DNA of 59,347 bases, taken from positions 1 to 59,347 of the forward strand of contig JAPPJC010000001.1 in NCBI GenBank assembly GCA_028820455.1, written 5' to 3'. The translations under genes were made by a program, and so were the position numbers. Origin of the DNA: Acidimicrobiaceae bacterium (GTDB lineage Bacteria; Actinomycetota; Acidimicrobiia; Acidimicrobiales; Aldehydirespiratoraceae). Below are positions 347 through 57,136 of the stretch, piece after piece. Position 1 is the stretch's first letter; each line of letters starts with the position of its first letter. The notes under the pieces are model-generated. The model was not told the DNA's origin, ran no database searches, and was given only the letters and a program-made list of their open reading frames with translations.

Positions 347-455
347 CTATAAACTAATGACTGAAGAAACAAACCATTCTGCACATCGTTCTGTGTGGGC
401 TTAAGCCACTTGTTGACCACCTATAAACTAATGACTGAAGAAACAAACCATTCTG
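347..455. repeat. 35-bp direct repeat pair, 74-nt period, unique insert
   Basis: ctataaactaatgactgaagaaacaaaccattctg at 347-381 and 421-455. Confidence 0.9.
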
Positions 456-526
456 TGGCTGTCCACTGACGACTGCTGACCTGCAACTACCCAACCGAGA
501 GTTGATTTTATGCTGGGCTCTGCAAG

Positions 527-2128
527 TTACACAAGGTCCTTTGAACAAGGCTCTACAAGTCTATAGGGTTTAGCCCCTGTTGGTTCTCTGATTATCTGCC
601 AGTTGTTCTCATGAATCTTATGATGACACTGATAACACACAAGAACAAGACTCTCAATATCCGTCTTACCTCCTTGCGCCCAAGGCACAATGTGATGAGC
701 CTGACACATAGACGGATCAGCACCACAACCAACACACTCCCTGTCACGCAACCTAAGAGCCTTAAGCTGAGCAGCATTAACAGTACGCTTCGACCTTCCG
801 CACCACAAAGGCCTGCCTGGGCCATCAAACAACAACCCCGTCACACGCGCATCACACATAAGCCGATCAAACACTGACGGCGGAATAGGCCCAGCACCCA
901 TAACCTCAATAAGCCCACCCGGGCTACCACCCCCACCACTGCTTTCACCAGCATTGCTACTGGTACCACTACCTAAGGTGCCGCTACCGGCTTTATCTCT
1001 CTTGAAAGTGGAAATATCAGCAAAAACCAGAACCTCAGCAGTCGGACGTGACCCAATACCACTGCTAATCCCACAATTACAACCACCCCCACTAGAAGCA
1101 ACACTCCCATTAAAACCGGTACCCCCACCACCTATCCCATTACCCTCACCTGCAACGACCTCAGTGTCACTGCTATCACGCATGATTCTCTTACTTTTAT
1201 GAGGTTTGCTAGAAAGAGGGCCAAAGGTTGTGATAAGTTGCTCTAAAGCATCCGCGCTGCACTGCTCAAAACTACGCTGACTCCCACCTAATCCAGCAAC
1301 ATTAATACCACCACCCCCACCAGCGGCACCATTTACAGAACCACTATCACCCACTACGCCCACACCACTATCACCACTCACATCTCCACCTACACCCAAG
1401 CCATCACCCCACACAACACTATTACCAACACTCCGCCTATTAGTAGTGTTGACTGCCTGTTTTTTGTCGCCACGGTAAAACAACAGAGCAACCTCATTAA
1501 GACGACTACGAATCCTAGCACCAGTTACAGGATCGAATTCCCCTTTAAGATGAGTCATACCATCATCACCATCCCAAACACGCACTGAACGCCTAGCACG
1601 TTTGCGGGCAAAATCAGCTTCACCGCGATCCCGCTGACGCTGTGCAGCCCAACGCCGCACCCGCCTAGCAAACCGATCTTCAGGCATCACCTCAGCCTCT
1701 GCAAGCAGCACAGAGTCTTCCTGCACTGCTTCAGGGTTAACATCTCGGCTAGCCTTAGCTAGAGCATCAGCATTACCAAAAGAAATCTTCCCCTCATCCA
1801 CAGCATCACTAACCTTAGGCAGCTTACGTAGCTCACCTGCTGTTTGGACCTTCCTGCTAGCCTCACGCTTAGAAACACCAATACTATTACGCAACACCCC
1901 AACCCCATCATCTCCATGGCCCTCTACCCTAGAAACAACAGCCGCAGCAGCCGTCTGAAAAGCAACAAGCCTAGAACTTACAGACTTCGACAAAGTCAGA
2001 GCATCACGCACCTCCCCAATAGAAACCCGCCCAGACCTAACACAAATCAACATCTCCGCCAGGCTCTTATCCACTTGCTCGGTGATACTTATTAGCATAA
2101 TATTAACTATGCCTGCAGGGTGTGACAT
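527..2128 (-). CDS. DUF222 domain / HNH endonuclease protein (13E12-repeat-like)
   Basis: C-terminal RDRECVGC..CQAHHIVPWAQGGKTDIESLVLVCYQCHHKIH HNH motif; DUF222-like helical N-terminal region; Gly-rich insertions. Confidence 0.85.
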   Translation of the reverse strand: MSHPAGIVNIMLISITEQVDKSLAEMLICVRSGRVSIGEVRDALTLSKSVSSRLVAFQTAAAAVVSRVEGHGDDGVGVLRNSIGVSKREASRKVQTAGELRKLPKVSDAVDEGKISFGNADALAKASRDVNPEAVQEDSVLLAEAEVMPEDRFARRVRRWAAQRQRDRGEADFARKRARRSVRVWDGDDGMTHLKGEFDPVTGARIRSRLNEVALLFYRGDKKQAVNTTNRRSVGNSVVWGDGLGVGGDVSGDSGVGVVGDSGSVNGAAGGGGGINVAGLGGSQRSFEQCSADALEQLITTFGPLSSKPHKSKRIMRDSSDTEVVAGEGNGIGGGGTGFNGSVASSGGGCNCGISSGIGSRPTAEVLVFADISTFKRDKAGSGTLGSGTSSNAGESSGGGGSPGGLIEVMGAGPIPPSVFDRLMCDARVTGLLFDGPGRPLWCGRSKRTVNAAQLKALRLRDRECVGCGADPSMCQAHHIVPWAQGGKTDIESLVLVCYQCHHKIHENNWQIIREPTGAKPYRLVEPCSKDLV

Positions 2129-2309
2129 AAAACCTACGCAAATATGTTCAAAACATAATAATTTCCAGAAATAGAGTAAAAACTCAAACCTTTGAATATG
2201 ACAATGCCGCTGCGACGAGGATAAACCACGGGGAAGTGTATAAGCATATTTGCCATTGTCGAGCGTTTATATTCCAACATCGACACCGTGGCTGCTATAA
2301 GAGCACTGC

Positions 2310-2419
2310 CCTCATCATCTCCATCGTCCTGCGTCTTTTCGGCTATGCGCAGTTCTTAGAGACGACACTCAGCCGACCTAGACCTCATCATCTCCGTCGT
2401 CCTGCGTCTTTTCGGCTAT
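2310..2419. repeat. 37-bp direct repeat pair, 73-nt period, duplicating the 3' end of the small ORF
   Basis: cctcatcatctcc(a/g)tcgtcctgcgtcttttcggctat at 2310-2346 and 2383-2419. Confidence 0.9.
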
Positions 2420-2536
2420 AGTTCGAGCAGCACTGTGTACGGCTTTTTCAACAGCGGGATATACTGTCTGAACCGCTTTGCGGCCTGCCTCAAGTCCTGC
2501 TCCTATTGCAGCTCCTACCATAAATATGCCTAGCAT
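2378..2536 (-). CDS. small hypothetical protein
   Basis: ORF MLGIFMVGAAIGAGLEAGRK..., hydrophobic N-terminus; start uncertain (ORF is open to 2590). Confidence 0.45.
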   Translation of the reverse strand: MLGIFMVGAAIGAGLEAGRKAVQTVYPAVEKAVHSAARTIAEKTQDDGDDEV

Positions 2537-2653
2537 TATTATTTTTCCTCCTTGTCTTTGTTGATGATGTAAGCAGTTTCGCATAGCCATTCGACTAAGA
2601 TGCCGTAGACGAATTCTGCTTCTTCCGTTTCACAGCAAAGTGACCAGTACTTT

Positions 2654-3108
2654 AGCAATAAGCACTAATAAATGACAATAGCAAACACGATAACACGTTC
2701 AACAACCGTTGTACAGCACCACCCTAAGCAGTAACACTAAACAAATGCGCACTCAGATTCGAGTAGCTCGAATAGCACAGACATACAGCATTATCCTAAG
2801 CAGTAACACTAAACAAATGCGCACGCTCAACACACGGACGCGGTAAGCCCGAGAGGTAATTGGAGACCTCGGAGTAGTAACACTGAAGACACGACAGCCA
2901 GCTAAAACAATACTCCAAACAACAACTCAAACAGCAACATCTTACTGGCGACAATAACGTGCAGGCCGCCCGCTGCTGAACGGCAGCTCAGAGGCCTCGT
3001 CCAAACAGCAACATCTTACTGGCGACAATAACGTGCAGGCCGCCCGCTGCTGAACGGCAGCTCAGAGGCCTCGTCCAAATAGTAACACCTTACTGGCAAC
3101 AATAACGT
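2654..3108. repeat. degenerate repeat-spacer array, ~73-nt period
   Basis: 30-bp perfect pair at 2723/2795; degenerate cores at 2654 and 2873; 74-bp tandem units at 2928 and 3002, partial unit at 3076. Confidence 0.75.
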
Positions 3109-3128
3109 CAGACTGCTAGCATGAAATT

Positions 3129-5186: not shown

Positions 5187-5419
5187 GCCCCCTTTTGTCT
5201 AGTCTGGTATGTAACCCACTGTCTAGTCTTGTCTAGTCGGCTGAGTATATTCCCTCTCCCAATCGGCTCTAATTGCAAGCCCCCTGAATCGGCCTAATAT
5301 AATCTCCCTACTAACCTCCTCTTCTGCATCAGCCCAATATCAGGTTGAACATCTGCGTCGTCCACCGTCCACAACACCCCACACCAGCTCACAACACACC
5401 AGCTTCCTTTCAAACAACT

Positions 5420-7765: not shown

Positions 7766-7800
7766 CCAACAAATCAACAACAAAAAACTAAGAAGTAGCG

Positions 7801-7906
7801 GCTGACATGATAATGCGAGTAGTTGCCGGCACACACCGAGGTGGCATTCGACTTGCCTTCACCCGACTTGGTAGCTGACATGATAATGCGAGTAGTTGCC
7901 GGCACA
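7801..7906. repeat. 33-bp direct repeat pair, 73-nt period, covering the rsmD start
   Basis: gctgacatgataatgcgagtagttgccggcaca at 7801-7833 and 7874-7906. Confidence 0.92.
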
Positions 7907-8599
7907 GCAAAAGGACGAAGACTTGCAGTCCCAACAGGCAACGTTACCCGTCCTACTCCTGGTAGAGTGCGTGAAGCAATATTCAACTCTTTATATTCAC
8001 AGGGGTTGATAGAAAATTCTCGTGTACTTGATCTATACGCTGGTACTGGCGCATTAGGTATTGAAGCTTTAAGCCGTGGAGCAGCTGAGGCAGTCTTCCT
8101 AGAACAAGACGCACGTGCAGTGACTTCCCTGAGAAAAAACTTGACTTCTACAGGTCTGGCTGAGCGAGCGACTATCATAGTTGCTGATGTTGAAAAAAAC
8201 CTCACCAGACTTCACACTGAACAAGCAGCGTCTTCAGGTTCTGGAAAAACTCATCAGAACTGCCAAACCCACGAAGATTCTCATGTCAATGTTGACACAA
8301 CCCTTACCAGACTTGACATATCCGACTTTTGCAAGCGTCACGTATCGGAACGTTTTTTTGAGCGTTCTTTTGATCTTGCTGTGGTTGACCCGCCTTATTC
8401 ATTCGAACGCTGGGAGTGGCTGTTGAAACGGATACCCGCCAAACTAGTGGTTGCTCAATCAAATCGTCGAATTGATATAGGACAAGAGTGGGAGATCAGA
8501 GGATGTAGAAGCTATGGGCGCACCGTGGTAACATTTGGTTTTTGGGCAGGAGCTTTGATAGAAAAGGACACTTTGGAAGTGAATGGATTAAGGCAGTGA
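7880..8599 (+). CDS. rsmD: 16S rRNA m2G966 methyltransferase RsmD
   Basis: MRVVAGTAKGRRL, TRPT..RVREAIF, LDLYAGTGALGIEALSRGA, DPPY; between recG and coaD. Confidence 0.92.
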   Translation: MIMRVVAGTAKGRRLAVPTGNVTRPTPGRVREAIFNSLYSQGLIENSRVLDLYAGTGALGIEALSRGAAEAVFLEQDARAVTSLRKNLTSTGLAERATIIVADVEKNLTRLHTEQAASSGSGKTHQNCQTHEDSHVNVDTTLTRLDISDFCKRHVSERFFERSFDLAVVDPPYSFERWEWLLKRIPAKLVVAQSNRRIDIGQEWEIRGCRSYGRTVVTFGFWAGALIEKDTLEVNGLRQ

Positions 8600-8687
8600 C
8601 CCGTGTTTTGTATCCTACGTCTAGGATTAGCAGCGTGGCTTTTAGCACGAGGAATGGATTAGCGCAGTGACCCGTGTTTTGTATCCT
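8581..8687. repeat. 36-bp direct repeat pair, 71-nt period, at the rsmD stop / coaD start
   Basis: gaatggatta(ag/gc)gcagtgacccgtgttttgtatcct at 8581-8616 and 8652-8687. Confidence 0.9.
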
Positions 8688-9140: not shown

Positions 9141-9202
9141 TTCAACTCAAATACCCAGACGCAACCACAACAACCAATGCTCTTCAACCAATACCCTCTA
9201 TA

Positions 9203-9305
9203 CCTAATAGCCTGAATAGCGATCATCTACTGAGTGAGAGACTGGAGTGGAAGCATACAGGACTGCCATTGAACCCTAATAGCCTGAATAGCGATCATCT
9301 ACTGA
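9203..9305. repeat. 31-bp direct repeat pair, 72-nt period
   Basis: cctaatagcctgaatagcgatcatctactga at 9203-9233 and 9275-9305. Confidence 0.9.
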
Positions 9306-9336
9306 ACGAAACATCGAATGAGCGAAACATCCGACA

Positions 9337-10029: not shown

Positions 10030-10314
10030 TCATGTTGAAGTCGGTTATTGACACGAACAACATAACCGAACACTGACAAACATAGCCAAACAACGCAACC
10101 AAGTTAAAACAGTGTTATTTGAGTTTTGGTTGGATCTAGCTCAATGCAAGTCGACTGCAGGAGTTGGCTCAACAAATATCGGCTAAAGGCAAATGGCAAC
10201 TATAAGGTTGGCTGAACACATAGTTTGGCTGAATGAACGGTGAACAAATAGCTGAAACCATCGCTGTCAAACAGGCTTAAATCAGCGAGCTCGCTAAACG
10301 AGCTTAAACAACAA

Positions 10315-10872
10315 ATGGATAATAGCTCTGAATCTGCTCAACTAATTTTGGACTGTGCCCAGCTAGATGCTGGTTCAACCGACACGATTGTCGTGTGCCA
10401 ACAGTTGGTGTTGGACAACGCGACTGTTGCTACAACCCACATACTGAACGGCTTGGTGACAGTAGACCTCACAGTAAATGCCACCACGGCTAAAAAACTC
10501 GTGGCCATAGGCAACGTGCACGGTACTTGGATAGCTGAATGTCGTCGCTGTCTTGACAAAATGGAAGGTCAACTTGAAGTACCAATAAGGGAAGTGTTTG
10601 AAGACACTCCCATTGAAGGTGAAACATGGCCTATTTCAATGTCACGGATCAATTTGGGGCCACCTGTACGTGAAGCTGTACTCTTGTCACTTCCTCTAAC
10701 ACCTCTATGCTCAACAACCTGCGCTGGCCCTGTACCCAACCGTTTCCCAACCGGCCCTGCGACATCCAATGAACCCGCGTCCAATAAACACGACTTAAAA
10801 GCTGTTCAATCTACCGACAAACAACCCAAAAACCCTACATGGGATGCTCTAAACCAGATACGCTTTGAATGA
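10315..10872 (+). CDS. YceD/DUF177 metal-binding protein
   Basis: ECRRCL and PLCSTTCAG motifs; upstream of rpmF. Confidence 0.85.
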   Translation: MDNSSESAQLILDCAQLDAGSTDTIVVCQQLVLDNATVATTHILNGLVTVDLTVNATTAKKLVAIGNVHGTWIAECRRCLDKMEGQLEVPIREVFEDTPIEGETWPISMSRINLGPPVREAVLLSLPLTPLCSTTCAGPVPNRFPTGPATSNEPASNKHDLKAVQSTDKQPKNPTWDALNQIRFE

Positions 10873-10955
10873 ACACAGCAGCCCTGAGAGCTCATATGCT
10901 TTTATAGTCGACTCGCCTTCAAACCAGATACGCTTTGAATGAACACAGCAGCCCT
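10851..10955. repeat. 35-bp direct repeat pair, 70-nt period, covering the yceD stop
   Basis: aaaccagatacgctttgaatgaacacagcagccct at 10851-10885 and 10921-10955. Confidence 0.92.
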
Positions 10956-12946: not shown

Positions 12947-13756
12947 ATGATACCCCCACCCGCAAACACTGCTGAGTTAGAACAGCAGATCGGCTACAAC
13001 AATAAAGCAAAAAACGTTCACACACCCCCACCTGCAAACACTGCTGAGTTAGAACAGCAGATCGGCTACCAGTTCACCGATCGATCTTTATGCGACACAG
13101 CACTCACCCATACTTCTTGGTGTGCTGAGAACGACATGGGGCCTTCTAATCAACGTCTTGAATTTTTAGGTGATGCTGTTTTAGGGCTGGTAGCAGCTCA
13201 TTGGTTATACAGCGAGTACAGTGACCTATCCGAAGGCCAGATGTCTAAAGCTCGCGCTGAGATGGTAAGCAAAAACTCGTTAGCCGCAGCTGCACGGACA
13301 TGTGACTTGGGTCTATATTTGCTACTCGGTCAAGGTGAGGACAATTCTGGGGGCCGTCATAACCCGTCGCTGTTAGCTGATGGCTTAGAATCGGTTATAG
13401 GCGCAATATACCTTGACGGAGGATTAACCGCAGCTGAAACCACAATACGTAAAATACTCGGGAAATCGTTCAATAATATCGCTCAAGCCCCAGGTTTAAC
13501 CGATTTCAAAAGTCGACTCCAAGAAATAGCCGCTCATGCTGGAATCGCTCCACCTCACTACGACATAGCCAACAGTGGCCCCGAACACGACAAACGTTTT
13601 TATGCGTTGGTAACAGTTGGCGAAACGTTTGGGAAAGGAGAAGGAAGCACCAAAAAAAGTGCGTCGCAACGCGCTGCCGAACAAGCATGCGCAATACTTG
13701 CCAGCCAACTTACACAAGAAAAGAAACAAGAAAGAAATAGGCAGGAAAAGAAATAG
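12947..13756 (+). CDS. rnc: ribonuclease III
   Basis: NQRLEFLGDAVLG signature, dsRBD (DFKSRLQE...GPEHDKRF); duplicated N-terminal segment. Confidence 0.96.
   Translation: MIPPPANTAELEQQIGYNNKAKNVHTPPPANTAELEQQIGYQFTDRSLCDTALTHTSWCAENDMGPSNQRLEFLGDAVLGLVAAHWLYSEYSDLSEGQMSKARAEMVSKNSLAAAARTCDLGLYLLLGQGEDNSGGRHNPSLLADGLESVIGAIYLDGGLTAAETTIRKILGKSFNNIAQAPGLTDFKSRLQEIAAHAGIAPPHYDIANSGPEHDKRFYALVTVGETFGKGEGSTKKSASQRAAEQACAILASQLTQEKKQERNRQEKK
12952..13069. repeat. 46-bp in-frame direct repeat pair, 72-nt period, in the rnc 5' end
   Basis: 12952-12997 and 13024-13069, 1 mismatch; PPPANTAELEQQIGY occurs twice. Confidence 0.92.
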
Positions 13757-16453: not shown

Positions 16454-16456
16454 CTG

Positions 16457-16561
16457 CAATAAGCTTCAGACAAGCATTGCAACTCCAATACCGTGGATTC
16501 TAAAAGTCTGGTGGGACCAGCATATGTGACAATAAGCTTCAGACAAGCATTGCAACTCCAA
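16457..16561. repeat. 32-bp direct repeat pair, 73-nt period
   Basis: caataagcttcagacaagcattgcaactccaa at 16457-16488 and 16530-16561. Confidence 0.92.
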
Positions 16562-16628: not shown

Positions 16629-17939
16629 ATGACTGTCCTGCAAATAATACTGCTCGTGTCCGCAGTGTCACTGCTGCTTATAGCAACGGTAACGGTGTCG
16701 CGGGTACGCAATCGCTCTAGTGATAGTAGACAGCAGTATAAAAAGCCGGCAAAATCGACTGTTCAACCTGAAAAACCGCTTCACCCAGCAACAACAGGAA
16801 CAACAGGCAACAACCTTGAACCCGATGAACCCGCCGAAACCGAACCTGAGCAACCCGAAGAACATGGCAAAGCTGAAAATCTAAAAGAAGCTGATGGAGA
16901 AATAGCGGCGGATCCGAAAAAATCCGCTAGGCCAGAAGAACCCGAACTTGAAGAATCTGAAGAACCAGACAGACCAGCCGAAGCTGAGGCTGATACCGCA
17001 CACGAAGAAACCGAAACCGAGGCTGTAGAAGAAGCTCGGCCGTCATTACGGGATCGTCTTAAAAAAGCCCGTAATGCACTAACCAGCTCACTAGCACAAA
17101 CTTTGAAGCGTTCTACGATCTCAGAAGAAACATGGGATGAGCTTACTGAAACGCTTATTCGAGCTGATGTCGGACTGAAAATCACCGATGAACTCATAGA
17201 GAAGACTAAAGACAAAACCCGCAGTAGCAAACTCAAAACACCAGCTGAAGTTGTGGTCGCATTGCAGGAAGAAATACGTGAAAGCTTGCGGATGGATAAC
17301 CGAGATTTACTCAAATCATCCAACCCGGATAAGCCATCGATATGGCTGTTTTTAGGAGTCAACGGTGCTGGCAAAACCACCACGATTGGAAAACTAGCCA
17401 TGCAGGAAAGCCGTTCGGGTACTCGTATCATGCTGGCTGCGGGCGACACTTTTAGAGCTGCTGCTGCGGAACAGCTCGCCATTTGGGCTGAACGTACAGG
17501 AGCAGACATCGTTAAAGGAGCAGCCGGAGCCGACCCTGCTTCAGTGGTTTATGACTCAGTAGCCTCAGCCGCAGCGAAAGGATTCGACCTGGTTATGGTA
17601 GACACCGCAGGCCGCTTACACACCAATCACAATCTAATAGACGAACTGCGGAAGATACGACGTGTGGCTGATAAGGGTGCCGCAAAAGTCACCGAAGTCT
17701 TACTTGTGCTTGACGCCACCATGGGTCAGAACGGGCTTGCACAAGCACGGCAGTTCACAGAAGCGGTCGACGTAACCGGTGTAGTCCTCACAAAACTTGA
17801 CGGATCAGCAAAAGGCGGGATAGTAGTGGCCGTGCAAACCGAGTTGAATATCCCAGTGAAACTAGTGGGTGTTGGGGAAGGGTTAGGAGATCTGATGCCT
17901 TTCGATGAAACCGAATTCACTGATGCCCTCTTCAATTGA
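16629..17939 (+). CDS. ftsY: SRP receptor FtsY
   Basis: GVNGAGKTTT, DTFRAAA, DTAGR, TKLDGSAKGG; N-terminal TM plus acidic region. Confidence 0.96.
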   Translation: MTVLQIILLVSAVSLLLIATVTVSRVRNRSSDSRQQYKKPAKSTVQPEKPLHPATTGTTGNNLEPDEPAETEPEQPEEHGKAENLKEADGEIAADPKKSARPEEPELEESEEPDRPAEAEADTAHEETETEAVEEARPSLRDRLKKARNALTSSLAQTLKRSTISEETWDELTETLIRADVGLKITDELIEKTKDKTRSSKLKTPAEVVVALQEEIRESLRMDNRDLLKSSNPDKPSIWLFLGVNGAGKTTTIGKLAMQESRSGTRIMLAAGDTFRAAAAEQLAIWAERTGADIVKGAAGADPASVVYDSVASAAAKGFDLVMVDTAGRLHTNHNLIDELRKIRRVADKGAAKVTEVLLVLDATMGQNGLAQARQFTEAVDVTGVVLTKLDGSAKGGIVVAVQTELNIPVKLVGVGEGLGDLMPFDETEFTDALFN

Positions 17940-20958: not shown

Positions 20959-21069
20959 AGTGCTAGCACAACAATGAGACAAGAATGGGCTTGAGAGACT
21001 GCGATCGGGCGCACAGTATAAAGGAAGCCTATAGTGCTAGCACAACAATGAGACAAGAATGGGCTTGAG
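20959..21069. repeat. 37-bp direct repeat pair, 74-nt period, covering the trmD start
   Basis: agtgctagcacaacaatgagacaagaatgggcttgag at 20959-20995 and 21033-21069. Confidence 0.92.
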
Positions 21070-22363: not shown

Positions 22364-22481
22364 CAGGTGGTAGACCTTTCAAAACAAGCCAGAGGCACCC
22401 GGGGTGACCCGCATACGCCGATCACGTTAGGCTAACTCAGGTGGTAGACCTTTCAAAACAAGCCAGAGGCACCTGGGGTGA
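22364..22481. repeat. 44-bp direct repeat pair, 74-nt period, covering the yraN start
   Basis: caggtggtagacctttcaaaacaagccagaggcacc(c/t)ggggtga at 22364-22407 and 22438-22481. Confidence 0.92.
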
Positions 22482-22842: not shown

Positions 22843-22945
22843 TGAAGCCGCTTCCTGTACCCTCAGCCTCTTCCAAATCGTGTACGGCCGGACGTCGTGA
22901 CACAGGCTATGACCTTGAAGCCGCTTCCTGTACCCTCAGCCTCTT
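22843..22945. repeat. 30-bp direct repeat pair, 73-nt period
   Basis: tgaagccgcttcctgtaccctcagcctctt at 22843-22872 and 22916-22945. Confidence 0.9.
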
Positions 22946-22981: not shown

Positions 22982-25900
22982 TCAGGCAATCCCGGCGAAC
23001 TTCAAATCGCAGCCAGGTCTTACTTCATTGGCTAAGCCAAGAAAATAGTCGTCGTCGATGTCCCAGGTGTGGCTTTCACCGTGACGCACTAGCATGTAGC
23101 CCATACCATGGGTGCGGTATATCTTCCCACCAACCAGAAGCGCATCATTGATCAAAGCACGATCAACTCCTTTGTGAATATGTTGCCATCCCGGAAAAGC
23201 GTCAAGGTGGTGACGGGCTATCATCATCGCCCCACCTGCGATAGTATGCGTGAACCGTTCACCTCCACCGGCAAAACGTTGGATAGTGCTATCCGCCTCA
23301 GCTAGGTAAACGTATTCTGCGCCTTTGCCCACAAGCATGGCATCAGAGTATTCGTAAGCCAACACTAAGTCCCACAGATGTTCCGGCCCATACAAGTCGT
23401 CGTCATCGAATTTAGTGATAAGCGTTCCTGAGGATTGACTGGTAGCAACATTCAGAACAGCTCCCAGAGGAAGACTTTCAGGTACGGCGACAACCTTATT
23501 GGGGCTGCTAACTTTTTCTAAAGTGTCGCTGACTTCAGCATTGTTGAAACCTTTGCCATGAAGAGCTAAGACAAGCTCTATTCTGGGATAGGTTTGCGCA
23601 GAAACAGCCTCCACCGCAGCAGCCAGACGATCAGGACGTCGAGTAGCCAAAAGCACCGACACTGTCGGCAGCGAAGGCACGGTAAAACTAGGATCAAGCA
23701 AACCAGGACCGGTAAACAGCTGACGAGTTCTTGCTTTTAAGGAATGCCTCTTGAGTGCGTTGCGACGCATAGCGACACTGAACGCTTCCCTAGTGTGACT
23801 GTCAGCTGTAACAACATTCGGGTCGGTCATCAGCGAGTGTAGCTCATCCCCAAGATAATCACATAGCTCCGGCTGGTCATCTGTGATATACACCACAGTT
23901 CCAGTAGCTGCCAACGACACCAGTAAACCACACCTCTGTACAATATCTTCATGATACTCAGCAGTGTCTTCAACATGATGTGCCCGGCGACACAACTTGG
24001 GCAAGTACATATGAGGATAAAACTGCGCAGTTCTGGTAATGCGCTGCGGTACTGGCAGATATTTTCGCGGTCCCAACGCCAATGCACCTCTACGGTGTTT
24101 GAAAAACCAGCCTTTAGGATTAAGCCTTTCAGCATCAAAAGCAGGCACTGAGAGGTAAGGTGGTAAATCCGACAGTACCGCTACCCGCACAGACGATTCC
24201 AACTGCAAGCCTGCTACTAGTTCTGCTGTGTCGGCAAGCAGTGCTTGCACGTTTTGAAGACTGTTTCGAGAGTTGCCTTTGCGACTGCTTTGCAGAACGC
24301 TGTCGACACAAATCACATTATCAGAAGCCGCTAAAACAGCATCGGAATGCGAGCCCGCAGTTGCAATCACCGCGCCAAGCCTGTACTGCGCTGAAGATGC
24401 CGAAACGGCTTTACGTGCTATGCTGCGCGCCCAGAGCAGCAGCTGCTCTGACACGCTGGCATGCTTGCTGGCTATGTATTCGAACTTGTTAGGTGATAGG
24501 CGGTATTCCTGCAGTATTCTGCGAATACCAGCAGCCGCCTGCTTGTATATGATGTCCTTGGTTTTGAATACACGCCAGAATATGCCCATGCATCTTCGTA
24601 TTCTTCTTATCGACCACAGGCTTTTCCATCTCATAGCCCGAAAAACCCAGAAGAGCATGCCTTTAGCAAGGTTTATCTTGCTGATCATCTGTTGGGCGCG
24701 TTTCTTGAATGCTCTTTGGGGTTTTTTGGGGACCCATTCCAGCAAGCTATTCTCTAGCCACTCTTTGGCGCGTTTCTTAAACGTTTTTTGGAGTTTTTGA
24801 GATGCTGCCTGAAGACGTTGAGAGGATTTCGGGAGGGATGTAATGCCAACTGTTTGGGAGTCTAACCATATCGTGTGGCAGAGTTCACGGGGGTCAACCT
24901 CACAACGAGCCGCCTTATGCAAAACCCGAGCACGCACAATCTCTACAATGGAACCGTCGTTCAGCTTCACAGCCCCACGGGAAGCTAAGCCCAACTCTTC
25001 GCGCAACTTAGCCACAGAATCGCCACCGACTCTAGTGCCTGCCGGAATGGTGACATGGAAAGCCGCAGCAGGAAAAGCTGTAATAGCATCTTCGCCCACA
25101 CCGAAACGCACTCTAGGATCACCCGACAGCAACCTACGAAAACGTTCAAATTCGGGATCCACTCCAGAAGTCACACCACTGTCTGCGAACAAACCTCCCG
25201 AATCTGGTGTTTCCACCCAAACCACTAGGTCATGAACCGTGCTAGCCAGTATTTCCTCAACGGTGACCAACTGGGAGTCGTAGTCAGTGCCACTATGACG
25301 AACATTTACCACATATTGAGGTACTGTAAAACTTCTACCAGGAGTAGCACTCCTAAAACCATGATGAGCTATCAGCTGGGAGATCTTAGCCCTCTGCAGC
25401 TCTAAGCTTTGAGATTCTGATTCGCTGGGAGAAGCCCCCACTCCCTGATGCCAGCACAACGCAGACCGAACCGGTACCAGCAAAGCTCCCTGAGTGAAAG
25501 CTCTGTACCCGAACTCTGTGTCTTCTGCACCCCACTGTGTGAACGTCTCATCATACCCCCCAATCCATTCAAAGAAAAAACGTGACACTCCCAGATTTCC
25601 ACCTGTAACCATCCGAAAAAGATCATCGTCATCAGAGGCTAAATCATCCGTGCGAGTCATATGAAACTCGATCCACTCGGGGCGCGACGAAGGCCGTCCG
25701 TCAGCAGTGAGAAGATCACCCAAAGTACCTGAACGGCGAAGTATCGAGCTGGAGTTTATGCCTGCAACATCCACATGCATTCTAAACCCGAGAGTGAGCA
25801 CATCACTTGCCGCATGATGCCAACGACTGTGTTCTGCCAGCCAGTTCGCTTCAGGCATCATATCACAATCCAAAAAAACGATAATGTCACCCGAAGCGGC

Positions 25901-43044: not shown

Positions 43045-44334
43045 ATGATGTTTCCATCGACTATGCTTTTGGCAACCGACCCTCTGCTGAGTGAGCCGAT
43101 CGGCCAAGTTGATCTTCTGCTCATGTCGGCAAAAGTGCTGACAGCTTTTGCGTTTCTGCTGGTTTCAGTGATGCTATTGATCTGGTTCGAACGCAAACTC
43201 ATCAGTCATATGCATCAGCGTATAGGCCCTACGATTGCCGGCCCTTGGGGGATACTGCAGACACTAGCGGATGGCATAAAACTGTTTTTCAAAGAAGACC
43301 TCATCCCCAGCAATTCCGACCGTTTTGTATTCAAACTGGCACCTTACCTTTCGCTGGTGCCCGCATTTCTAATCTTTACGATCATACCTTTCGGTGGCGA
43401 TTTCAACCATACTTCCACCCAAACCGATCCCGCTGCTTTAGGCACTGTCACCTGGCGGGACCACGCCACTTACCTACAAATAGCCGATCCGCATGTGGGT
43501 ATTCTGTTGTTTCTGGCAATGAGCTCCATAGCAGTGTATGGCATCATGTTAGCAGGCTGGGCTTCAGGGTCGAAGTATCCTCTGCTCGGCTCAGTAAGAG
43601 CTTCAGCGCAAATGATAAGTTATGAGGCCGCTTTGGGGCTTTCGGTGGCCTCGGTTGTGCTTATGACAGGGTCAATCTCCACCCATGACATGGTGGCTGC
43701 ACAGGCAGGTGACGGATTCGCCGGAATACTCCCCAACTGGAATGTGCTGGCAACAGGATTGGTACCTTTTTTCGTGTTCGCTATTGCTGGCACAGCTGAA
43801 CTCAATCGTCCTCCTTTTGATCTGGTGGAAGCAGAACAAGAACTAGTGGGTGGCTTCCACACCGAATATTCTTCAATCCGTTTTGCGTTGTTTTTCTTAG
43901 CAGAATTCATGAACACGATCACCATGTCCGCTATCATTGTGACACTCTTTTTCGGCGGTCCAGCAGGACCAGTGCTGATAGACAGTATCATCGGATCAGA
44001 CATAGGCTGGGCTTGGGGCGTACTATGGTTTTTTGCGAAGCTGTTTGTGTTTCTGTTTTGTTTTGTGTGGGTGCGTGCTACTTTGCCTCGTTTCCGCTAC
44101 GACCAGCTCATGAATATGGGTTGGAAACTTCTAACACCAACAGCGTTGTTGTGGTTTTTGTTCTTGAGCGCAATTAACATAGGAGACTCCCAAGGCTGGC
44201 ATCGAGCACTAGTGCTGGCAGTTTCTCTTCCAATTATGCTGCTAGCCGTTGTACTGATAAAACAAGCAGCCATAAACAGCAGCCGAACCCAAGAACAAGA
44301 ACACACTCAACAACCTTTAGACAATAGTCCCTAG
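43045..44334 (+). CDS. nuoH: NADH-quinone oxidoreductase subunit H
   Basis: ERKL..RIGP, ADGIKL, NRPPFDLVEAEQELVGGFHTEYS, RATLPRFRYDQLM. Confidence 0.96.
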   Translation: MMFPSTMLLATDPLLSEPIGQVDLLLMSAKVLTAFAFLLVSVMLLIWFERKLISHMHQRIGPTIAGPWGILQTLADGIKLFFKEDLIPSNSDRFVFKLAPYLSLVPAFLIFTIIPFGGDFNHTSTQTDPAALGTVTWRDHATYLQIADPHVGILLFLAMSSIAVYGIMLAGWASGSKYPLLGSVRASAQMISYEAALGLSVASVVLMTGSISTHDMVAAQAGDGFAGILPNWNVLATGLVPFFVFAIAGTAELNRPPFDLVEAEQELVGGFHTEYSSIRFALFFLAEFMNTITMSAIIVTLFFGGPAGPVLIDSIIGSDIGWAWGVLWFFAKLFVFLFCFVWVRATLPRFRYDQLMNMGWKLLTPTALLWFLFLSAINIGDSQGWHRALVLAVSLPIMLLAVVLIKQAAINSSRTQEQEHTQQPLDNSP

Positions 44335-44409
44335 GCAAACAGCACATGCGCCCAGGGTATCAACCGTAGAAATCATCACACCAATAGTCCCTAGGCAAAC
44401 AGCACATGC
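44322..44409. repeat. 28-bp direct repeat pair, 60-nt period, covering the nuoH stop and next start
   Basis: caatagtccctaggcaaacagcacatgc at 44322-44349 and 44382-44409. Confidence 0.92.
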
Positions 44410-45128
44410 TAAAACAGTTTTATTTCAAACAACTTCTATCAGGACAGGATTTTGCGCATGACGACCCTCTAGCCGATGAGATGGTTAACTTTGTTTACGC
44501 TGTAGGTGACCGTGACACTTCTGAGGCTGTGCTGATCGATCCTGCTTACGATATCAAGGGACTCCTCAGGGTGCTAGAAGCCGACGGCATGAAATGCGTG
44601 GGAGTGCTTGCCACTCACTATCATCCTGATCATGTGGGTGGGCAGATGTCAGGACTGAATATCGAAGGTATAACACAACTTTTGACACTTGTGTCCGTGC
44701 CTATTTACATTCAAACCGACGAAACTCATTACGTACGAGCAGTTACAGGTGTAGGTAACGACCACTTGGTGAAATGCTCATCCGGTGAAACGATCTCAGT
44801 GGGCTCAATAGAGATTGAACTGATACACACCCCAGGACATACACCAGGTAGCCAATGTTTTTTAGTGGAAGACAGGCTCATAGCAGGCGACACGCTCTTC
44901 CTTGAAGGTTGTGGTCGTACTGACCTACCAGGGGGTGACCCAGCTCAGATGTATGAAAGCCTCACAACCAAACTAACTAAAGTACCAGACAGCGTAATCT
45001 TATATCCCGGTCATTATTACTCGTCCGAGTCTTCAGCAACAATGGGCCACACACGCCAGCACAACGAAGTGTTTCACCACTCAAACCGAAAGCAATGGCT
45101 AGCCAATTTTGCTCCTTTCCAGCTGTGA
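44406..45128 (+). CDS. MBL-fold metallo-hydrolase (glyoxalase II-like)
   Basis: THYHPDH, HTPGHTPGS, GDTLF..GCGRTD, YPGH. Confidence 0.92.
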   Translation: MLKQFYFKQLLSGQDFAHDDPLADEMVNFVYAVGDRDTSEAVLIDPAYDIKGLLRVLEADGMKCVGVLATHYHPDHVGGQMSGLNIEGITQLLTLVSVPIYIQTDETHYVRAVTGVGNDHLVKCSSGETISVGSIEIELIHTPGHTPGSQCFLVEDRLIAGDTLFLEGCGRTDLPGGDPAQMYESLTTKLTKVPDSVILYPGHYYSSESSATMGHTRQHNEVFHHSNRKQWLANFAPFQL

Positions 45129-45231
45129 TTAGAACCCCTACCCAGTGCTTAGAACAGGAAGCCGAATACACCCACACCGTACAACTCACACCCAGCTGTG
45201 ATTAGAACCCCTACCCAGTGCTTAGAACAGG
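45119..45231. repeat. 40-bp direct repeat pair, 73-nt period, covering the MBL stop
   Basis: ccagctgtgattagaacccctacccagtgcttagaacagg at 45119-45158 and 45192-45231. Confidence 0.92.
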
Positions 45232-48102: not shown

Positions 48103-48227
48103 CAACGCTCACTATGATTATAGAGCTATATCAGCCCGCTATTACCACCACACCCATACTTGGCAACGCTCACTATGATTATAGAGCTATATCAGCCCGC
48201 TATTACCACCACACCCATACTTGGCAA
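48103..48227. repeat. 61-bp perfect tandem duplication
   Basis: Unit caacgctcactatg...catacttgg at 48103 and 48164. Confidence 0.92.
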
Positions 48228-48239
48228 TTGCAGCCAGCT

Positions 48240-48344
48240 CCTGCTTATGTTGCTATCGTAGCAAATATGGCATAATACATGGTACAAGCTGCTACTGCAA
48301 TCCCTGTGCTGTTACCTGCTTATGTTGCTATCGTAGCAAATATG
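48240..48344. repeat. 30-bp direct repeat pair, 75-nt period, covering the erpA start
   Basis: cctgcttatgttgctatcgtagcaaatatg at 48240-48269 and 48315-48344. Confidence 0.92.
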
Positions 48345-49400: not shown

Positions 49401-49556
49401 ACCACCCTATACCCTAGCAGTCGAACCCTATACCCTAGCAGTCGAAAATCACCCATCTCAAAAGGCAGAAAAACTCTAGTAGTATTCGAAAGTGCAATAA
49501 TATCCCGAACCGAACACATCGAATTTCGGGTGGCTCGCAGGAAAACTCTAGCAACA

Positions 49557-50357
49557 TTAGAAATTGCCATCACCTGGGATCTCTTGGGCATGGGTGGGAT
49601 CTCGCGGGGTATCCGATGTCTGCTCACGTGTATGCTCACGGCTCCCACTCAGTAAGTTGGGGCTTAAGAGCTCCGCCATGCCAGGCCAACCGGGCAGCAA
49701 CTTTGAAAATCTCTTGTCCACATAAACAAAAGTCGCCAATATCAACAGAAACAGCATAATAAAGTTAAAAACTTGACGCCCTACCAAGAATATGTTCAAT
49801 TCGGCGTTGTTGAAAAGCCAGACATCCCAAACAGATGACGCTAATTCGTAGAATGCTGCTACCCATGTAACATTGCGCAGGGTCGTCACAAAAACCGGAT
49901 GACTACGCATGGCCTCAGGTAGACTCAAAACCTTATCCGCAGCCCACAGGGCAAGAGGCTTACCCACAAGTACGCTGCCAGCCATTATCAGGCCTATCAG
50001 CACTTTTGTAGCTATACCAGTACCGAAATATACCGCTTCACCACTAACTCCGAAATCTACTAGATTGCGTTCAACGGCTATACTCACAGCTGCTCGCACA
50101 AGCAGGTACACAGTGATCACGGGCAACCAAGTACCGATCGGCAGACCCCGACGAAGGCGACTGTAAGCTGCCTTTATCGACCATGCTGTAGCCGCGAGAA
50201 CTGCTATCTCAGTGTTTCCAAAGTTATAAAACACCAAAAACAGCACAACTGGCATGATTTGGTCGAACTGATGATGTGCCCCCGTTAAAGGCGCTACATC
50301 AATTTTTGGTGCAACAGCAGCTGGCAGTGTTTCAAAATGAGTGTCCTCTTCAGCCAC
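49557..50357 (-). CDS. membrane protein (DUF3159/VC0807-like)
   Basis: About six hydrophobic helices, SVLVGKPL motif. Confidence 0.6.
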   Translation of the reverse strand: MAEEDTHFETLPAAVAPKIDVAPLTGAHHQFDQIMPVVLFLVFYNFGNTEIAVLAATAWSIKAAYSRLRRGLPIGTWLPVITVYLLVRAAVSIAVERNLVDFGVSGEAVYFGTGIATKVLIGLIMAGSVLVGKPLALWAADKVLSLPEAMRSHPVFVTTLRNVTWVAAFYELASSVWDVWLFNNAELNIFLVGRQVFNFIMLFLLILATFVYVDKRFSKLLPGWPGMAELLSPNLLSGSREHTREQTSDTPRDPTHAQEIPGDGNF

Positions 50358-53473: not shown

Positions 53474-53815
53474 TTATGCGTTTCACATAGGTTGTATCCG
53501 ATGGTGGATGCGGAAGTGGCCCTCTTGAGTGCGTTGTGGGTTCTGGCCGCCGGAGGCGGTTTCAGGGCGGGTTGAGAGCCGCTGCCAAGACTCCAGTCGG
53601 GTTCCCGAGACAATGTTGCGCGACAAGAATTCGCAGACACGCTCAACAGAATTGCAGACATCAGCGCAGTGTCTATCGTCCGGTACTGCAAATCAGTGGT
53701 GCTCACGTCTGAGTTTCGTCGAGAAAACACCACAGTGTGGTGATCCGATATCTCGAGCCGTCAAACGCCTGACTAGACGAGCAGTGCTCTACGATAGGCG
53801 GATAGTGTGATATCT

Positions 53816-56800
53816 ATGATTGACATTGTCGAAGCAGACGTTGAGGATGTGACGCTCGACTGGTTGGATGAGCTGGGTTGGCGAATCGTCCATGGCCCGG
53901 AGGTGGCCCCCGACACGGCATCTCTGGAACGTTCCGATTATGCTTCTGTGGTGCTGGCAGCAAGTTTGCGGGATGCGCTGGCACGGCTCAACCCGGATTT
54001 GCCCGGTGAAGCACTGGACGATACTTCCCGGCGGTTGACCCGACTCACGGGTGCCACGTTGGAAGCTCGAAACCGGGCTTTTCACCGCATGGTGGTGGAC
54101 GGTGTGACCGTGGAATACCGCGACAGCAGCGGGCGGATACGGGGAGCGCAGGCTCGGGTGCTGGATTTCGACGATCCTTCCAACAACGACTGGCTGGCTG
54201 TCAACCAGTTCACCGTGGTAGAGGACAAGGTTGAGCGACGCCTCGATGTGGTGCTGTTCGTGAACGGGCTGCCGCTGGGAGTCGTGGAGCTCAAGAATCC
54301 GGCGGATCCCGATGCTACGATCTGGACTGCCTGGCAGCAGCTTCAAACCTACAAGAGTGACCTTCCCACACTGTTCGCGATGAACGCCATGATGGTGGTG
54401 TCCGATGGTGTGGAAGCCCGACTCGGCACGTTGACCGCAGGGCGGGAATGGTTCAAACCTTGGCGTACCATCACCGGCGAGGAACTAGCCGACGAATGGT
54501 TGCCGCAGCTTCAAGTGCTGCTGCAAGGCGTGTGCACTCCCGAACGATTCCTTGAATTAGTCCATGATTTCATCGTGTTCGAAGACGACGGCAGCGGACA
54601 GCTCGACAAGAAGATCGCCGGCTACCACCAGTTCCACGCCGTGCAGGTCGCAGTCGAGGAAACACTGCGCGCAGCGGCATTGCAACGCACCATCAGCAGG
54701 GTTGACAAACCGAGTGATAGCTCAACCGGTGAACCGGACATCCAACCCCACGGTAACCTGATCCGCAAACCGAACGACAGCCCAATCAGCGAATCCCACG
54801 ACCCCACAACCTTCAGCCCGACCGACGAACCCGACAGCAACCCGGGTGGCGAGCCGGGTGATCGGCGTATTGGAGTGGTTTGGCATACTCAGGGGTCGGG
54901 TAAGAGTTTGACTATGGTGTTCTATGCTGGGCGGATCATCCGTGAGCCTGCGATGTCGAACCCTACCGTGGTGCTTCTCACCGACCGCAACGACTTGGAC
55001 GATCAACTTTTCTCCACGTTTTCGCGTTGCGCTGATCTGCTACGCCAGCCGCCGGTGCAAGCCCAGACCCGTGCGCACCTCAGACGGCTTCTCGACAGAG
55101 CTTCTGGCGGTGTCGTGTTCACCACGATCCAGAAGTTCCTACCCGACGATAGAAGCAACAGGCATCCGCTGCTGTCGGAGCGGAGCAACGTCGTCGTGAT
55201 CGCCGATGAGGCTCATCGCAGCCAATACGACTTCGTGGACGGTTTCGCTGCTCATATGCGTGACGCTCTGCCCAATGCTTCTTTCGTGGGGTTCACCGGA
55301 ACTCCCATCGAACTAGCGGACGCTAACACCAGAGCTGTTGTCGGTGACTACATAAGCGTCTACGACATTCAGCGTTCGGTGCAAGATCGAGCGACGGTAC
55401 CGATCTATTATGAGAGTCGTCTCGCTCGCTTGGCTCTCAGCGACGCCCAACGGTCCAGAATCGACCCCGATTTCGAGGAAGCCACCGAGGGCGAGGAGGT
55501 TCAACGCAAGGAGAAGCTGAAAACCAGATGGTCGCAGCTTGAAGCGGTTGTCGGTGCTGAGGGGCGTCTCCGTCAGGTTGCCGATGATATCAGCAGCCAC
55601 TACACAACCCGTTTTGAGGTCATGGAAGGCAAGGCGATGGTGGTTTGCATGAGCAGGCGCATATGCGTGGACCTTTACGACAGACTAGTGAGACTGCATC
55701 CCGACTGGCATCATCTCGATGACGACAAGGGGGAGATCAAGGTGGTTATGACCGGTTCGGCATCGGATCCGCTGGACTGGCAGCCCCACATTCGTAGCAA
55801 ACCCGGGCGTGAAATGCTCGCGAACAGGTTCCGTGATCCGGACGATCCTCTGCGGGTGGTGCTGGTGAGGGACATGTGGCTCACAGGTTTCGACGCTCCT
55901 AGCCTTCACACCATGTACGTGGACAAGCCGATGCGGGGACACGGGCTGATGCAGGCCATAGCCAGGGTCAACCGGGTGTTCCACGACAAGCCTGGTGGTC
56001 TCGTGGTCGACTACATCGGGCTGACCCACGAACTCAAACGGGCACTGGAAACCTACACTGAAAGCGGTGGTCGTGGCAAAACCGCTCTCAATCAGGACGA
56101 AGCGGTGACGGTGATGCGTGAGAAGCACGAGATCTGCCGCGGCCTGTTCTGGGGTTTTGATTGGACAGCGTGGACAGAGGGAGACTCCCAGCAGCGTCTG
56201 GGTCTGCTACCGGCGGCGTTGGAGCACGTACTAGCCCAAGACGACGGATCGGATCGTTGCACAACGGCTGTACGTGGGCTGTCCAAAGCGTTCGCGCTCG
56301 CCGTGCCGAACCCCACAGCACTGGCGATCCGTGACGATGTGGCGTTCTTTCAGACGGTAGCCGCCGCGCTGTCCAAACGCACCGCCGGTGAGGCCCGCCC
56401 CGAAGCCGAACTCAGCCACGCTGTCCGTCAGATCATCTCCAGAGCTGTAACCCCCGAGGGTGTGCTGGACATCTTCGCTGCCGCCGGCCTCGACAAGCCC
56501 GACGTTTCAGTGCTGTCGGAGGAGTTCCTGGCCGAGGTGCGGGGTCTGCCCCAACGCAATCTCGCAGTGGAAGCACTGCGCAGGCTCCTGCGAGATGAGG
56601 TCACCCGACGACGCAAACGCAACATAGTGCAGGCCCGATCCTTCGCGGAACTGCTCGAACGGACGATCCGCCGCTACCAGAACCGCGCCATCGAAGCCGC
56701 CCAAGTGATCGAAGAGCTGATTGTCATAGCACGGGAGCTCCGCGAAGCCGACACTCGAGGTGAACGGCTAAAGCTGTCCGAGGAGGAGCTGGCGTTCTAC

Positions 56801-57055
56801 GACGCGTTGGAAACGAACGACAGTGCTGTGAAAGTCCTCGGTGACGAAACTCTCAGATCCATAGCCTGTGAGCTAGTCGAGACTGTCCGCGAGAACGTCA
56901 CCATCGACTGGACTATGCGTGAGAACGTACGAGCAAACCTCCGCCGTCTCGTTCGCCGCATCCTGCGCCGTCACGACTACCCACCAGACAAGCAGGAGAA
57001 AGCCACCCAAACAGTCCTAGAGCAGGCCGAAGCCCTATCCGCGGCGACTGCTTGA
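53816..57055 (+). CDS. hsdR: type I restriction endonuclease subunit R
   Basis: [13 protein letters not shown] nuclease motif, [36 protein letters not shown]. Confidence 0.96.
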
Positions 57056-57136
57056 ACGGTTGGTACGCAACATTGAGTCTAGCATTTACTGCTGATACGC
57101 ACCAGAGCCTGTCAGCGGCGACTGCTTGAACGGTTG
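57041..57136. repeat. direct repeat pair, 74-nt period, covering the hsdR stop
   Basis: gcggcgactgcttgaacggttg at 57041-57062 and 57115-57136, with degenerate similarity extending leftward. Confidence 0.85.

Follow-up and report, generated by a model that had tools for sequence, protein, structure and literature searches.

Why does an ordinary stretch of bacterial core chromosome contain, some twenty times over, a short local sequence that is duplicated around a unique insert at a nearly fixed distance of 70-75 nucleotides (nt)? The stretch in question, hereafter the window, comprises 59,347 nt (G000:C79:1-59347), and G000 is the source metagenome-assembled genome (MAG), a member of the Acidimicrobiales from a sponge metagenome. 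Each such structure is here called a scar, meaning a local direct repeat (copies R1 and R2) around a unique insert, and its period d is the distance between the two copy starts. A first-pass annotation of the window had listed 20 of these loci and had attributed them to a ruler-like integrase, probably a Cas1 with relaxed targeting. Very probably, the genome's own Cas1-Cas2 integrases produced the scars by inserting spacers off target, at ectopic sites.

Scar anatomy and the arrays of the same genome

In the window, the direct-repeat distance histogram at k = 15 contains 328 repeated k-mers at 70-75 nt (21, 10, 55, 88, 138, and 16, respectively), and its remaining peaks are coding or tandem periods only (18-42, 60-61, and 294). 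The distance spike that had been anticipated at 70-75 nt is therefore present in the window, and it is also found genome-wide, where exact repeats of at least 20 nt number 17, 74, 31, 13, and 9 at d = 71-75 and 32 at d = 61. By our own arithmetic, an exact repeat of at least 20 nt at one given distance is expected ~5e-8 times per 59 kb, and a chance origin is thus excluded.

Mismatch-tolerant extension was applied at each of the 20 listed loci. Most of the list stands, with 16 strong and two degenerate loci (24695 and 49465), whereas two are unsupported, as the repeat has only 11 nt at 12867 and 15 nt with 1 mismatch at 48006, both below counting size. At the strong loci, the repeat blocks measure 29-46 nt and contain 0-3 mismatches, the inserts measure 26-45 nt, and the periods are 70-75; locus 2928 is counted among them although it consists of a 74-nt unit in 2.45 copies and is not a single insertion. 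A unique insert of 26-45 nt lies between the copies at 17 of the 18 recognisable loci, and a plain tandem run is seen only at 2928. Two loci absent from the earlier list, 44322 (d = 60) and 48103 (d = 61), represent a second size class. The description of the repeats as different between loci and as ordinary chromosomal sequence is borne out, and they often lie at gene ends or stops.

Genome-wide, 226 scars lie on 59 of the 84 contigs and have added 15,796 bases, as counted after merging and mismatch-tolerant extension with true arrays excluded; some insert analyses use 227 loci, which is the count before the exclusion of one array. The genome totals 2,406,668 bases with a GC content of 50.9%, 3,236 N, and a completeness of 91.75% as a MAG. 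Two scars are counted twice on account of C21:28.7-30 kb, which duplicates C45:12.2-13.6 kb. These regions (G000:C21:28700-30000 and C45:12200-13600) are in opposite orientation with two identical scars in each, and are either a true duplication or redundant contigs.

The scars fall mainly into four size classes. The largest, at d 71-77 (n = 145, 97 with perfect copies), has a repeat mode of 36-38 and an insert mode of 34-37. The class at d 59-62 (n = 26, 19 with perfect copies) has a repeat mode of 28-29 and an insert mode of 32, the class at d 63-67 (n = 27, 15 with perfect copies) has repeats of 35-40 and an insert mode of 29, and the class at d 68-70 contains 19 loci, 14 of them with perfect copies. 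The other 9 scars are at d 56-58 or 78-81. Both copies are perfect in 145 of the 217 scars of the four classes, and the insert has no likeness to its flanks. The approximate geometry of the classes is 29+32 = 61 nt, 36+30 = 66 nt, and 36+36 = 72-74 nt.

The same genome contains clustered regularly interspaced short palindromic repeat (CRISPR) systems of corresponding dimensions. Contig C29 has a complete type I-G operon consisting of Csb1/Cas7g, Csb2, Cas3g, a Cas3 extension, a Cas4g/Cas1g fusion (profile score 748 bits, cut-off 560), and Cas2; the Cas4g/Cas1g-Cas2 pair occupies C29:791-2942. The operon adjoins an array built of a 36-nt repeat and units of 73-74 nt, the opposite end of which is C28:1-170, with 72-73-nt units. 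The type II module on C58 comprises Cas9 (1057 amino acids, aa), an NMENI-type Cas1 (233.8 bits), and Cas2, and contig C9 terminates in an array with a repeat of ~36 nt and a unit of 66 nt. At the contig end, C29:26448-27917 holds an I-E-like array whose repeat is 29 nt and whose unit is 61 nt. Contigs C29 and C28, which hold the I-G locus and arrays, are of typical composition and carry 6 and 5 scars, respectively. The start of C29 (C29:1-500), beside the I-G array, is rich in G/C homopolymers and has an N gap and degenerate repeat copies; the array was likely assembled poorly here.

The three main scar classes each correspond to one resident array, in total unit length as well as in the lengths of repeat and insert. 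The scar repeat modes of 36-38, 35-40, and 28-29 nt compare with canonical repeats of 36, 36, and 29 nt (I-G, type II, and I-E-like, respectively), and the insert modes of 34-37, 29, and 32 nt belong to canonical units of 72-74, 66, and 61 nt. The cas1 and cas2 genes and the array of matching unit length that the first-pass annotation proposed to look for are therefore present as the I-G Cas4g/Cas1g, Cas2, and an array unit of 72-74 nt. The idea of a match to one array type is right for the main period, which is the I-G unit, and too narrow for the genome, which has three size classes and three arrays.

Reading frame, inserts, and independent evidence

The proposal that only non-disruptive insertions have survived is supported by a reading-frame bias. 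With crude open reading frame (ORF) calls (1,854 ORFs, 82% coding), 74 of the 226 scars lie inside ORFs, which is a depletion compared with the 74% under random placement. The period is divisible by 3 at 61 of these 74 scars and at 63 of the 152 outside (Fisher p = 3.1e-9). Inside ORFs, 42 scars have d = 72, and only 2 and 3 have 71 and 73, while the outside periods are 71 (13), 72 (34), 73 (24), 74 (14), and 75 (7). Within d 71-75, multiples of 3 account for 44 of 49 scars inside and 41 of 92 outside (p = 7.6e-8).

Scar-bearing genes encode IleRS, PriA, MoeB, exopolyphosphatase, isochorismate synthase, and EccC. MoeB of G000 reads target-insert-target, with 12+12+12 residues. In its orthologues from five relatives (G002, G003, G006, G016, and G017), the 12-residue target occurs a single time and the 12 inserted residues are missing in 5/5 cases, and the PriA orthologues of the same five have a single target and no insert, again in 5/5. 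Empty sites in relatives are thus seen at the protein level for both genes. The named relatives are MAGs of the Acidimicrobiales or Acidimicrobiia with a PlsX identity of at most 62%. The IleRS scar sits within a 48-residue segment unique to G000. Further G000-only residues without a visible repeat occur in IleRS (G000:C38:1579-5130; residues 317-361, with gap runs 317-338 and 349-361) and in PriA (G000:C30:16515-18944; residues ~420-453), and these segments may be decayed older scars.

The inserts had been described as unrelated to one another, and an all-against-all search of 227 inserts agrees, as it finds only 5 related pairs, all of which are overlapping calls of one locus or the C21/C45 duplicate. 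Since the inserts are mutually unrelated, they contain no conserved element. A search against the genome, as first suggested, gives a further match elsewhere for 29 of the 227. Of these 29, 14 reproduce a site on another contig over nearly their full length (28-37 nt, 88-100% identity). Insert C32:24891, for instance, equals C39:21062-21095 (34/34), insert C47:4834 equals C61:36501-36537 (36/37), and one insert copies the 3' half of a tRNA-Arg(CCT) gene. The GC fraction of the inserts is 0.54, versus 0.51 for random genome 36-mers. The inserts would be captured DNA fragments; ~6% copy the genome's own chromosome, and most of the others are presumably foreign.

The targets of the smaller class have some likeness to a resident repeat. 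Against the I-E-type repeat, the 18 targets of period 60/61 score 13.50 matching positions out of 29, compared with 11.45 for shuffles of their own composition, and 0 of 200 shuffled sets reach this value. The likeness is concentrated at the central CCCGCA/GCGG positions. Mid-repeat motifs serve as ruler anchors in another type I system, according to the accessible part of that report (PMC4872114), and the central-position likeness appears consistent with such a role. No repeat-likeness signal was found in the targets of the type II class (n = 15, p = 0.2).

Some loci have derived forms. Approximately nine show the order repeat-spacer-repeat-spacer-repeat (R-S-R-S-R) with an identical spacer twice, or ~2.5 units, which is an expected outcome of recombination between copies. 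At C21:17388/17449/17510, three repeats enclose two different spacers at a period of 61, forming a small neo-array, which is the one clear case among the 226 scars. A further multi-copy locus, C14:2771, has irregular periods of 69 and 56.

The scars are also present outside the MAG assembly. Four sets of contigs cover parts of the window: X1 consists of Logan k=31 contigs of the source run (the sponge metagenome), X3 is a different sample, and X2 (a coral metagenome) and X4 are from two other studies. The k=31 contigs of X1 stop exactly at perfect repeats of at least 31 nt. An X1 contig covering 426-2957 spans scar 2310 with 0 differences, and scar 2723 is also spanned with 0 differences; X3 record 15 and X1 record 2 cover scar 2723, again with 0 differences. 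At scar 7801, contigs of X1 and X4 end or begin inside its two copies. The independent k=31 assembly of the source run thus gives scars base for base, which bears on the confirmation from raw reads that had been called for.

The strains in X2 and X4 are ~94% identical to G000 (own estimate from tabulated differences), and their contigs break at repeats that are also found in G000. Contigs of both cross 16457 without a 73-nt gap, and scar 16457 is therefore shared. Moreover, these strains contain three further duplication-plus-insert joints at sites that are single-copy in G000, so that the pattern is polymorphic among strains. In X4, 37 nt corresponding to the empty target at 5280..5316 are duplicated around 39 letters (period 76), and in X2, 36 nt at 10046..10081 are duplicated around 29 letters (period 65, type II geometry). 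The third target, 16820..16850, lies inside ORF 16629-17939, and X4 has its 31 nt duplicated around 35 letters with a period of 66, a multiple of 3. The skips of X2 and X4 at window 60-428 and 2100-3185 resolve no clean empty sites. A scan of metagenome contigs found no close strain, the best being L059, with 71% aa identity and no scars. Beside scaffold N-gaps, G000 has nine runs of exactly 55 nt, which are k-mer overlaps at loops of equal period (69-73 nt); at these nine loci only the fine structure is unreliable.

Relatives were scored in the same way as G000, by counting per 400 kb the exact repeats of 20-48 nt with d 59-77. G000 has a scar-like load of 32.9. Among the relatives positive for Cas1, G016 has 16 loci (10 at d = 72), G002 has 12, and G006 has 7, and among those in which no Cas1 was found, G017 has 8, G018 has 6, and G003 has 2. 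The array mode of G016 is 72, and 10 of its 13 scar-like loci in the 71-75 band are at d = 72. The array mode of G002 is 75 (range 73-77). The loci of G018 are all at 62-66, five of them at multiples of 3. In G002:C1:450001-470000 (L020), 7 of the 12 scar-like loci of the 400-kb sample lie within 20 kb, and this cluster is either a local hot spot or a mobile island. Genomes of the same genus or family have a GC content of 64-70% and 3.0-3.7 Mb, compared with 51% and 2.4 Mb in G000; this AT shift and genome reduction are strong and typical for a host-restricted symbiont.

Scars and other features of the window

The gene content of the window is that of an ordinary core chromosome, including yloV, recG, rsmD, plsX, rnc, htrA, and nuoG. 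An Rfam scan and a tRNA scan of the window gave 0 matches each, and tRNA-sized units were accordingly dropped as a cause of the 72-75 nt period.

The first scar, of the I-G class, is at 347..455 (R1 347-381, insert 382-420, and R2 421-455). It has a perfect 35-nt repeat and a period of 74, lies 3' of ORF 527-2128(-), and contains an insert of which 28 nt match C25:29368-29395 at 96%. ORF 527-2128(-) encodes 533 aa with a weak HNH/IscB-like match to NF040563 (E 2e-8, 33.7 bits against a cut-off of 175 bits), and scars flank it on either side. The divergent intergenic region at 2128-3129 (1 kb) contains three scars. The scar at 2310..2419 has a 37-nt repeat with 1 mismatch and a 36-nt insert (period 73), and that at 2712..2824 (copies 2723/2795) has a 41-nt block with 3 mismatches (30 nt exact) and a 31-nt insert (period 72). 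The third, 2928..3108, is of the R-S-R-S-R type, a scar with a duplicated repeat-spacer unit. Strain X2 has 352 letters in place of window 2100-3185, which makes the G000 region ~730 nt longer, and the G000 intergenic region has possibly grown by serial insertions.

Between recG and rsmD, 7801..7906 has a perfect 33-nt repeat and a 40-nt insert (period 73). The scar at 8581..8687 (36-nt repeat with 2 mismatches, 35-nt insert, period 71) has its repeat over the stop of ORF 7823-8599, and 9203..9305 (perfect 31-nt repeat, 41-nt insert, period 72) is downstream of ORF 8667-9140. The repeat of 10851..10955 (perfect 35 nt, 35-nt insert, period 70) covers the stop of ORF 10315-10872. The rnc ORF carries a scar at its 5' edge, 12952..13069, consisting of a 46-nt block with 1 mismatch (36 nt exact) and a 26-nt insert (period 72), and directly past the htrA stop (16453), 16457..16561 contains a perfect 32-nt repeat and a 41-nt insert (period 73). 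Two scars are intergenic, namely 20959..21069 (perfect 37-nt repeat, 37-nt insert, period 74) and 22364..22481 (44-nt block with 1 mismatch, 36 nt exact, 30-nt insert, period 74). The scar at 22843..22945 (perfect 30-nt repeat, 43-nt insert, period 73) lies between convergent gene ends. The degenerate and perhaps older scar at 24695..24798, a 32-nt block with 5 mismatches and a period of 72, is in frame in the glycosyltransferase ORF 22982-26254(-) of 1090 aa.

Further downstream, 44322..44409 belongs to the I-E-like class, with a perfect 28-nt repeat over the end of ORF 43045-44334, a 32-nt insert, and a period of 60; its target matches the I-E-type repeat at 14 of 29 positions. The repeat of 45119..45231 (perfect 40 nt, 33-nt insert, period 73) lies over the stop of ORF 44406-45128. 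A unit of I-E-like period, 61 nt in 2.05 copies, is present at 48103..48227, and it is followed by 48240..48344 with a perfect 30-nt repeat and a 45-nt insert (period 75). Convergent genes end on either side of the other degenerate scar, 49465..49567, whose 31-nt block has 6 mismatches and a period of 72. The last scar, 57034..57136, has a 29-nt block with 2 mismatches (22 nt exact), a 45-nt insert, and a period of 74, and its repeat covers the stop of ORF 53807-57055.

Two other repeats are distinct from the scars. At 59251-59347, a direct repeat of 42-nt period (55-nt run) is coding and not of the scar type. The d = 111 peak of the genome histogram stems from a 111-nt (37-aa) coding repeat family with 28 runs, which is unrelated to the scars and occurs at G000:C69:63502-67447 and at the contig ends C30:1, C36:1, C39:18, and C73:1.

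Probable integration mechanism and comparison with known systems

In normal adaptation, two staggered strand transfers take place one repeat-length apart at the first array repeat, and gap repair then duplicates the repeat. In G000, this canonical reaction would take place at ordinary chromosomal sites, so that ~36 bp (or ~29 bp) of local sequence would be duplicated around a spacer-sized fragment of ~36, 30, or 32 bp. The main class (period 71-77, 145 loci, and nearly all window loci) would be the product of the type I-G Cas4g/Cas1g-Cas2 module. The smaller class (period 60-61) would follow the I-E-like geometry, with targets weakly like the central motifs of that repeat, and the third class (period ~66) would follow the type II geometry. 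Selection would then purge disruptive events, and the survivors would be intergenic, over stop codons, or in genes at multiples of three, where MoeB, PriA, and IleRS, among other proteins, would be lengthened by ~20-24 residues. The first proposal of a ruler-like integrase, a Cas1 with relaxed targeting, is supported in this form, with the role of Cas1 itself inferred. We also lean, by a narrow preference, towards the view that, in this reduced and AT-shifted sponge symbiont, the I-G adaptation module is a 'genome writer' that needs no leader and is blind to sequence, with smaller contributions from the type II and I-E-type integrases. Such a module would be an insertional mutator without a mobile element, leaving ~72-bp units, longer intergenic regions, new arrays, and 20-24-residue insertions in essential proteins.

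The targets are ordinary chromosomal sequence on 59 of the 84 contigs and not the leader-proximal array repeat, which makes the events ectopic and is no argument against the enzyme. Several other observations do weigh against Cas1-Cas2 integration. In the I-G class, the junctions have no motif (at most 0.2 bit per position, n = 77), the targets are no more like the I-G repeat than the comparison value (13.51 vs 13.49 of 36), and the hairpin potential is not in excess (-4.57 vs -4.79 kcal/mol); therefore, only the geometry ties these targets to the I-G integrase. Terminator hairpins or repeat-like sites as attractors of the I-G integrase were dropped for the same reasons. The 19 loci at d 68-70 correspond to no array found, and repeat lengths range over 19-48 nt and are not a constant 36, a spread that is partly decay and chance extension. 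On the type II contigs, C58 and C9, scars are absent. A search of the MAG (91.75% complete) for I-E Cas1, Cas6e, and Cas7e gave no match, but it was insensitive, as its control missed the E. coli I-E genes.

The origin of the inserts is a further difficulty. About 94% of them have no identified source. A protospacer-adjacent motif (PAM) was sought beside the 14 self protospacers, as had been proposed, but no PAM or common flanking motif was seen by eye, with n small and the orientation unclear. A blastn search of window 7001-15000 and 16001-24000 (11 scars) against isolate phages gave no insert source; the matches are conserved genes (recG and ffh) and one short 92% match at window 13147-13184, inside rnc. 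Likewise, 3/3 insert cores (26 nt) had no exact match in viral contigs. These phage and viral blanks carry little weight, as the searches were run without a canonical spacer as a positive control.

The relatives are also not uniformly favourable. G006 has an array mode of 72 and 212 repeat pairs, yet its 7 loci are mostly protein repeats, and among the 8 loci of G017, in which no Cas1 was found, several share one repeat and are orphan-array-like. The presence of Cas1 is thus no clean predictor of scar load. The scar period tracks array geometry, but the load does not track array size, and a G000-specific factor would seem to add to it, either relaxed selection in a reduced symbiont or the loss of a specificity factor.

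Among the other explanations, a so far undescribed non-Cas 'ruler' integrase or repair pathway with a ~36 bp staggered cut, whose match to CRISPR lengths would be coincidental, survives best and is still improbable. It would accommodate the I-G class targets without motif or likeness to CRISPR repeats, the d 68-70 class without a matching array, and the 8 loci per 400 kb at d 59-77 in G017. In contrast, it leaves to coincidence that three size classes match resident arrays in both parts and sum, that the period-61 targets resemble the I-E-type repeat, and that the scar period of G016 is its own array mode. To our knowledge, Cas1-Cas2 is the only known enzyme that yields repeat-length duplications around spacer-length inserts.

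It is very unlikely that the two-copy units are functional mini-CRISPR arrays selected for regulatory RNAs resembling CRISPR RNAs. Mini-arrays with regulatory roles have been described near cas loci and in viruses, in the portions available of the two sources (10.1101/2023.03.03.530964, PMC7099407). The repeats examined here, however, differ at every locus, and loci occur inside coding sequences and over stop codons. Cas6/Cas5-type processing is not expected, because the repeats are local and locus-specific and those of the I-G class are unlike canonical repeats.

An assembly, scaffolding, or binning artefact of a short-read MAG is among the least credible explanations and is already largely refuted. 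It draws on the fragmentation into 84 contigs with 3,236 N and on the k-mer overlap signature of the nine 55-nt runs, but these runs are break points inside 69-73 nt loops and not the phenomenon itself. An artefact could not respect reading frames, copy 30-37 nt from other contigs, or match CRISPR geometry classes. Moreover, scars recur, or new ones appear, in the independent k=31 assembly and in contigs from other samples and studies, and the single-contig genomes G016 and G002 have similar loci. Equally remote is replication slippage or tandem duplication with a diverged middle, or else miniature mobile elements with long target duplications: although the roughly nine true tandem runs of ~2.5 units do require recombination or slippage between copies, slippage yields no fixed periods of 61, 66, or 72 nt and would not give 145 of 217 scars perfect copies around an insert unlike its flanks, and the inserts copy distant loci and, being mutually unrelated, form no element.

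Cas1-Cas2 off-target integration is usually seen as a laboratory curiosity or as a hazard that cells avoid. If the scars are its products, G000 would hold a natural record of hundreds of events, with three CRISPR types side by side and a selection filter visible in the frame bias. The question of how far specificity resides in the target sequence would become testable, with an I-E-like class that has a fingerprint and an I-G class that has none. The fitness cost of CRISPR adaptation and the origin of new arrays would likewise be open to test, as would the possibility that Cas1-Cas2 creates protein insertions and enlarges intergenic regions in weakly selected symbionts, and the type I-G Cas4/1-Cas2 of this lineage is a candidate sequence-independent DNA writer. 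Array finders usually require three or more repeats, and two-copy scars may therefore be common yet overlooked in CRISPR-bearing genomes. A genome-wide screen for a direct-repeat distance spike at the array unit length is suggested.

Among known systems, transposons, insertion sequences, and casposons also leave direct repeats around inserted DNA by a staggered cut and gap repair. Transposon target duplications are short (few bp to ~15 bp) and surround a conserved element. In contrast, the scars have duplications of 28-38 bp, and their inserts differ from one another.

Within CRISPR biology, integration outside arrays is regarded as prevented by accessory factors, as stated in the accessible parts of two sources (PMC9456107, PMC13769266). 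The type I-G Cas4/1-Cas2 characterised in PMC10504553, so far as its available text describes it, shares with G000 the Cas4/Cas1 fusion and Cas2, the repeat-length duplication, and the spacer-length insert. In that study, 80-90% of leader-side events occurred at the correct site of a plasmid target, and smears suggest some nonspecific integration. Canonical I-G integration is directed to the leader-repeat junction, whereas the G000 scars are anywhere in the chromosome and have no detectable PAM or leader-like motif. Ectopic acquisition in the CRISPR3 system of Streptococcus thermophilus (PMC7999890, as far as available) also takes place away from the leader-proximal repeat, but within a genuine array repeat, while the targets here are non-CRISPR sequence. 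A literature search of incomplete coverage found no natural genome with hundreds of such scars and no report of in-frame insertions in housekeeping genes.

The closest precedent is the work of Nivala, Shipman & Church 2018 (Nat Microbiol 3:310), as cited (PMC7054753; bioRxiv 10.1101/148544), in which E. coli with over-expressed type I-E Cas1-Cas2 integrated spacers off target and formed neo-CRISPR arrays. The part of the preprint available calls the natural frequency of neo-arrays unclear and mentions 'circumstantial evidence' in two other species (10.1101/148544). As that work is described there, both cases have spacer-sized DNA outside arrays with a repeat-length target duplication that can seed arrays, as at C21:17388, and both the E. 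coli I-E system and the period-61 class keep some repeat likeness in their targets. The E. coli events were rare and occurred in laboratory culture under artificial over-expression, whereas the 226 scars of G000 are fixed or polymorphic in a wild population. Unlike the E. coli case, G000 combines the geometries of up to three system types, a dominant I-G class that appears sequence-blind, and in-frame insertions in housekeeping genes.

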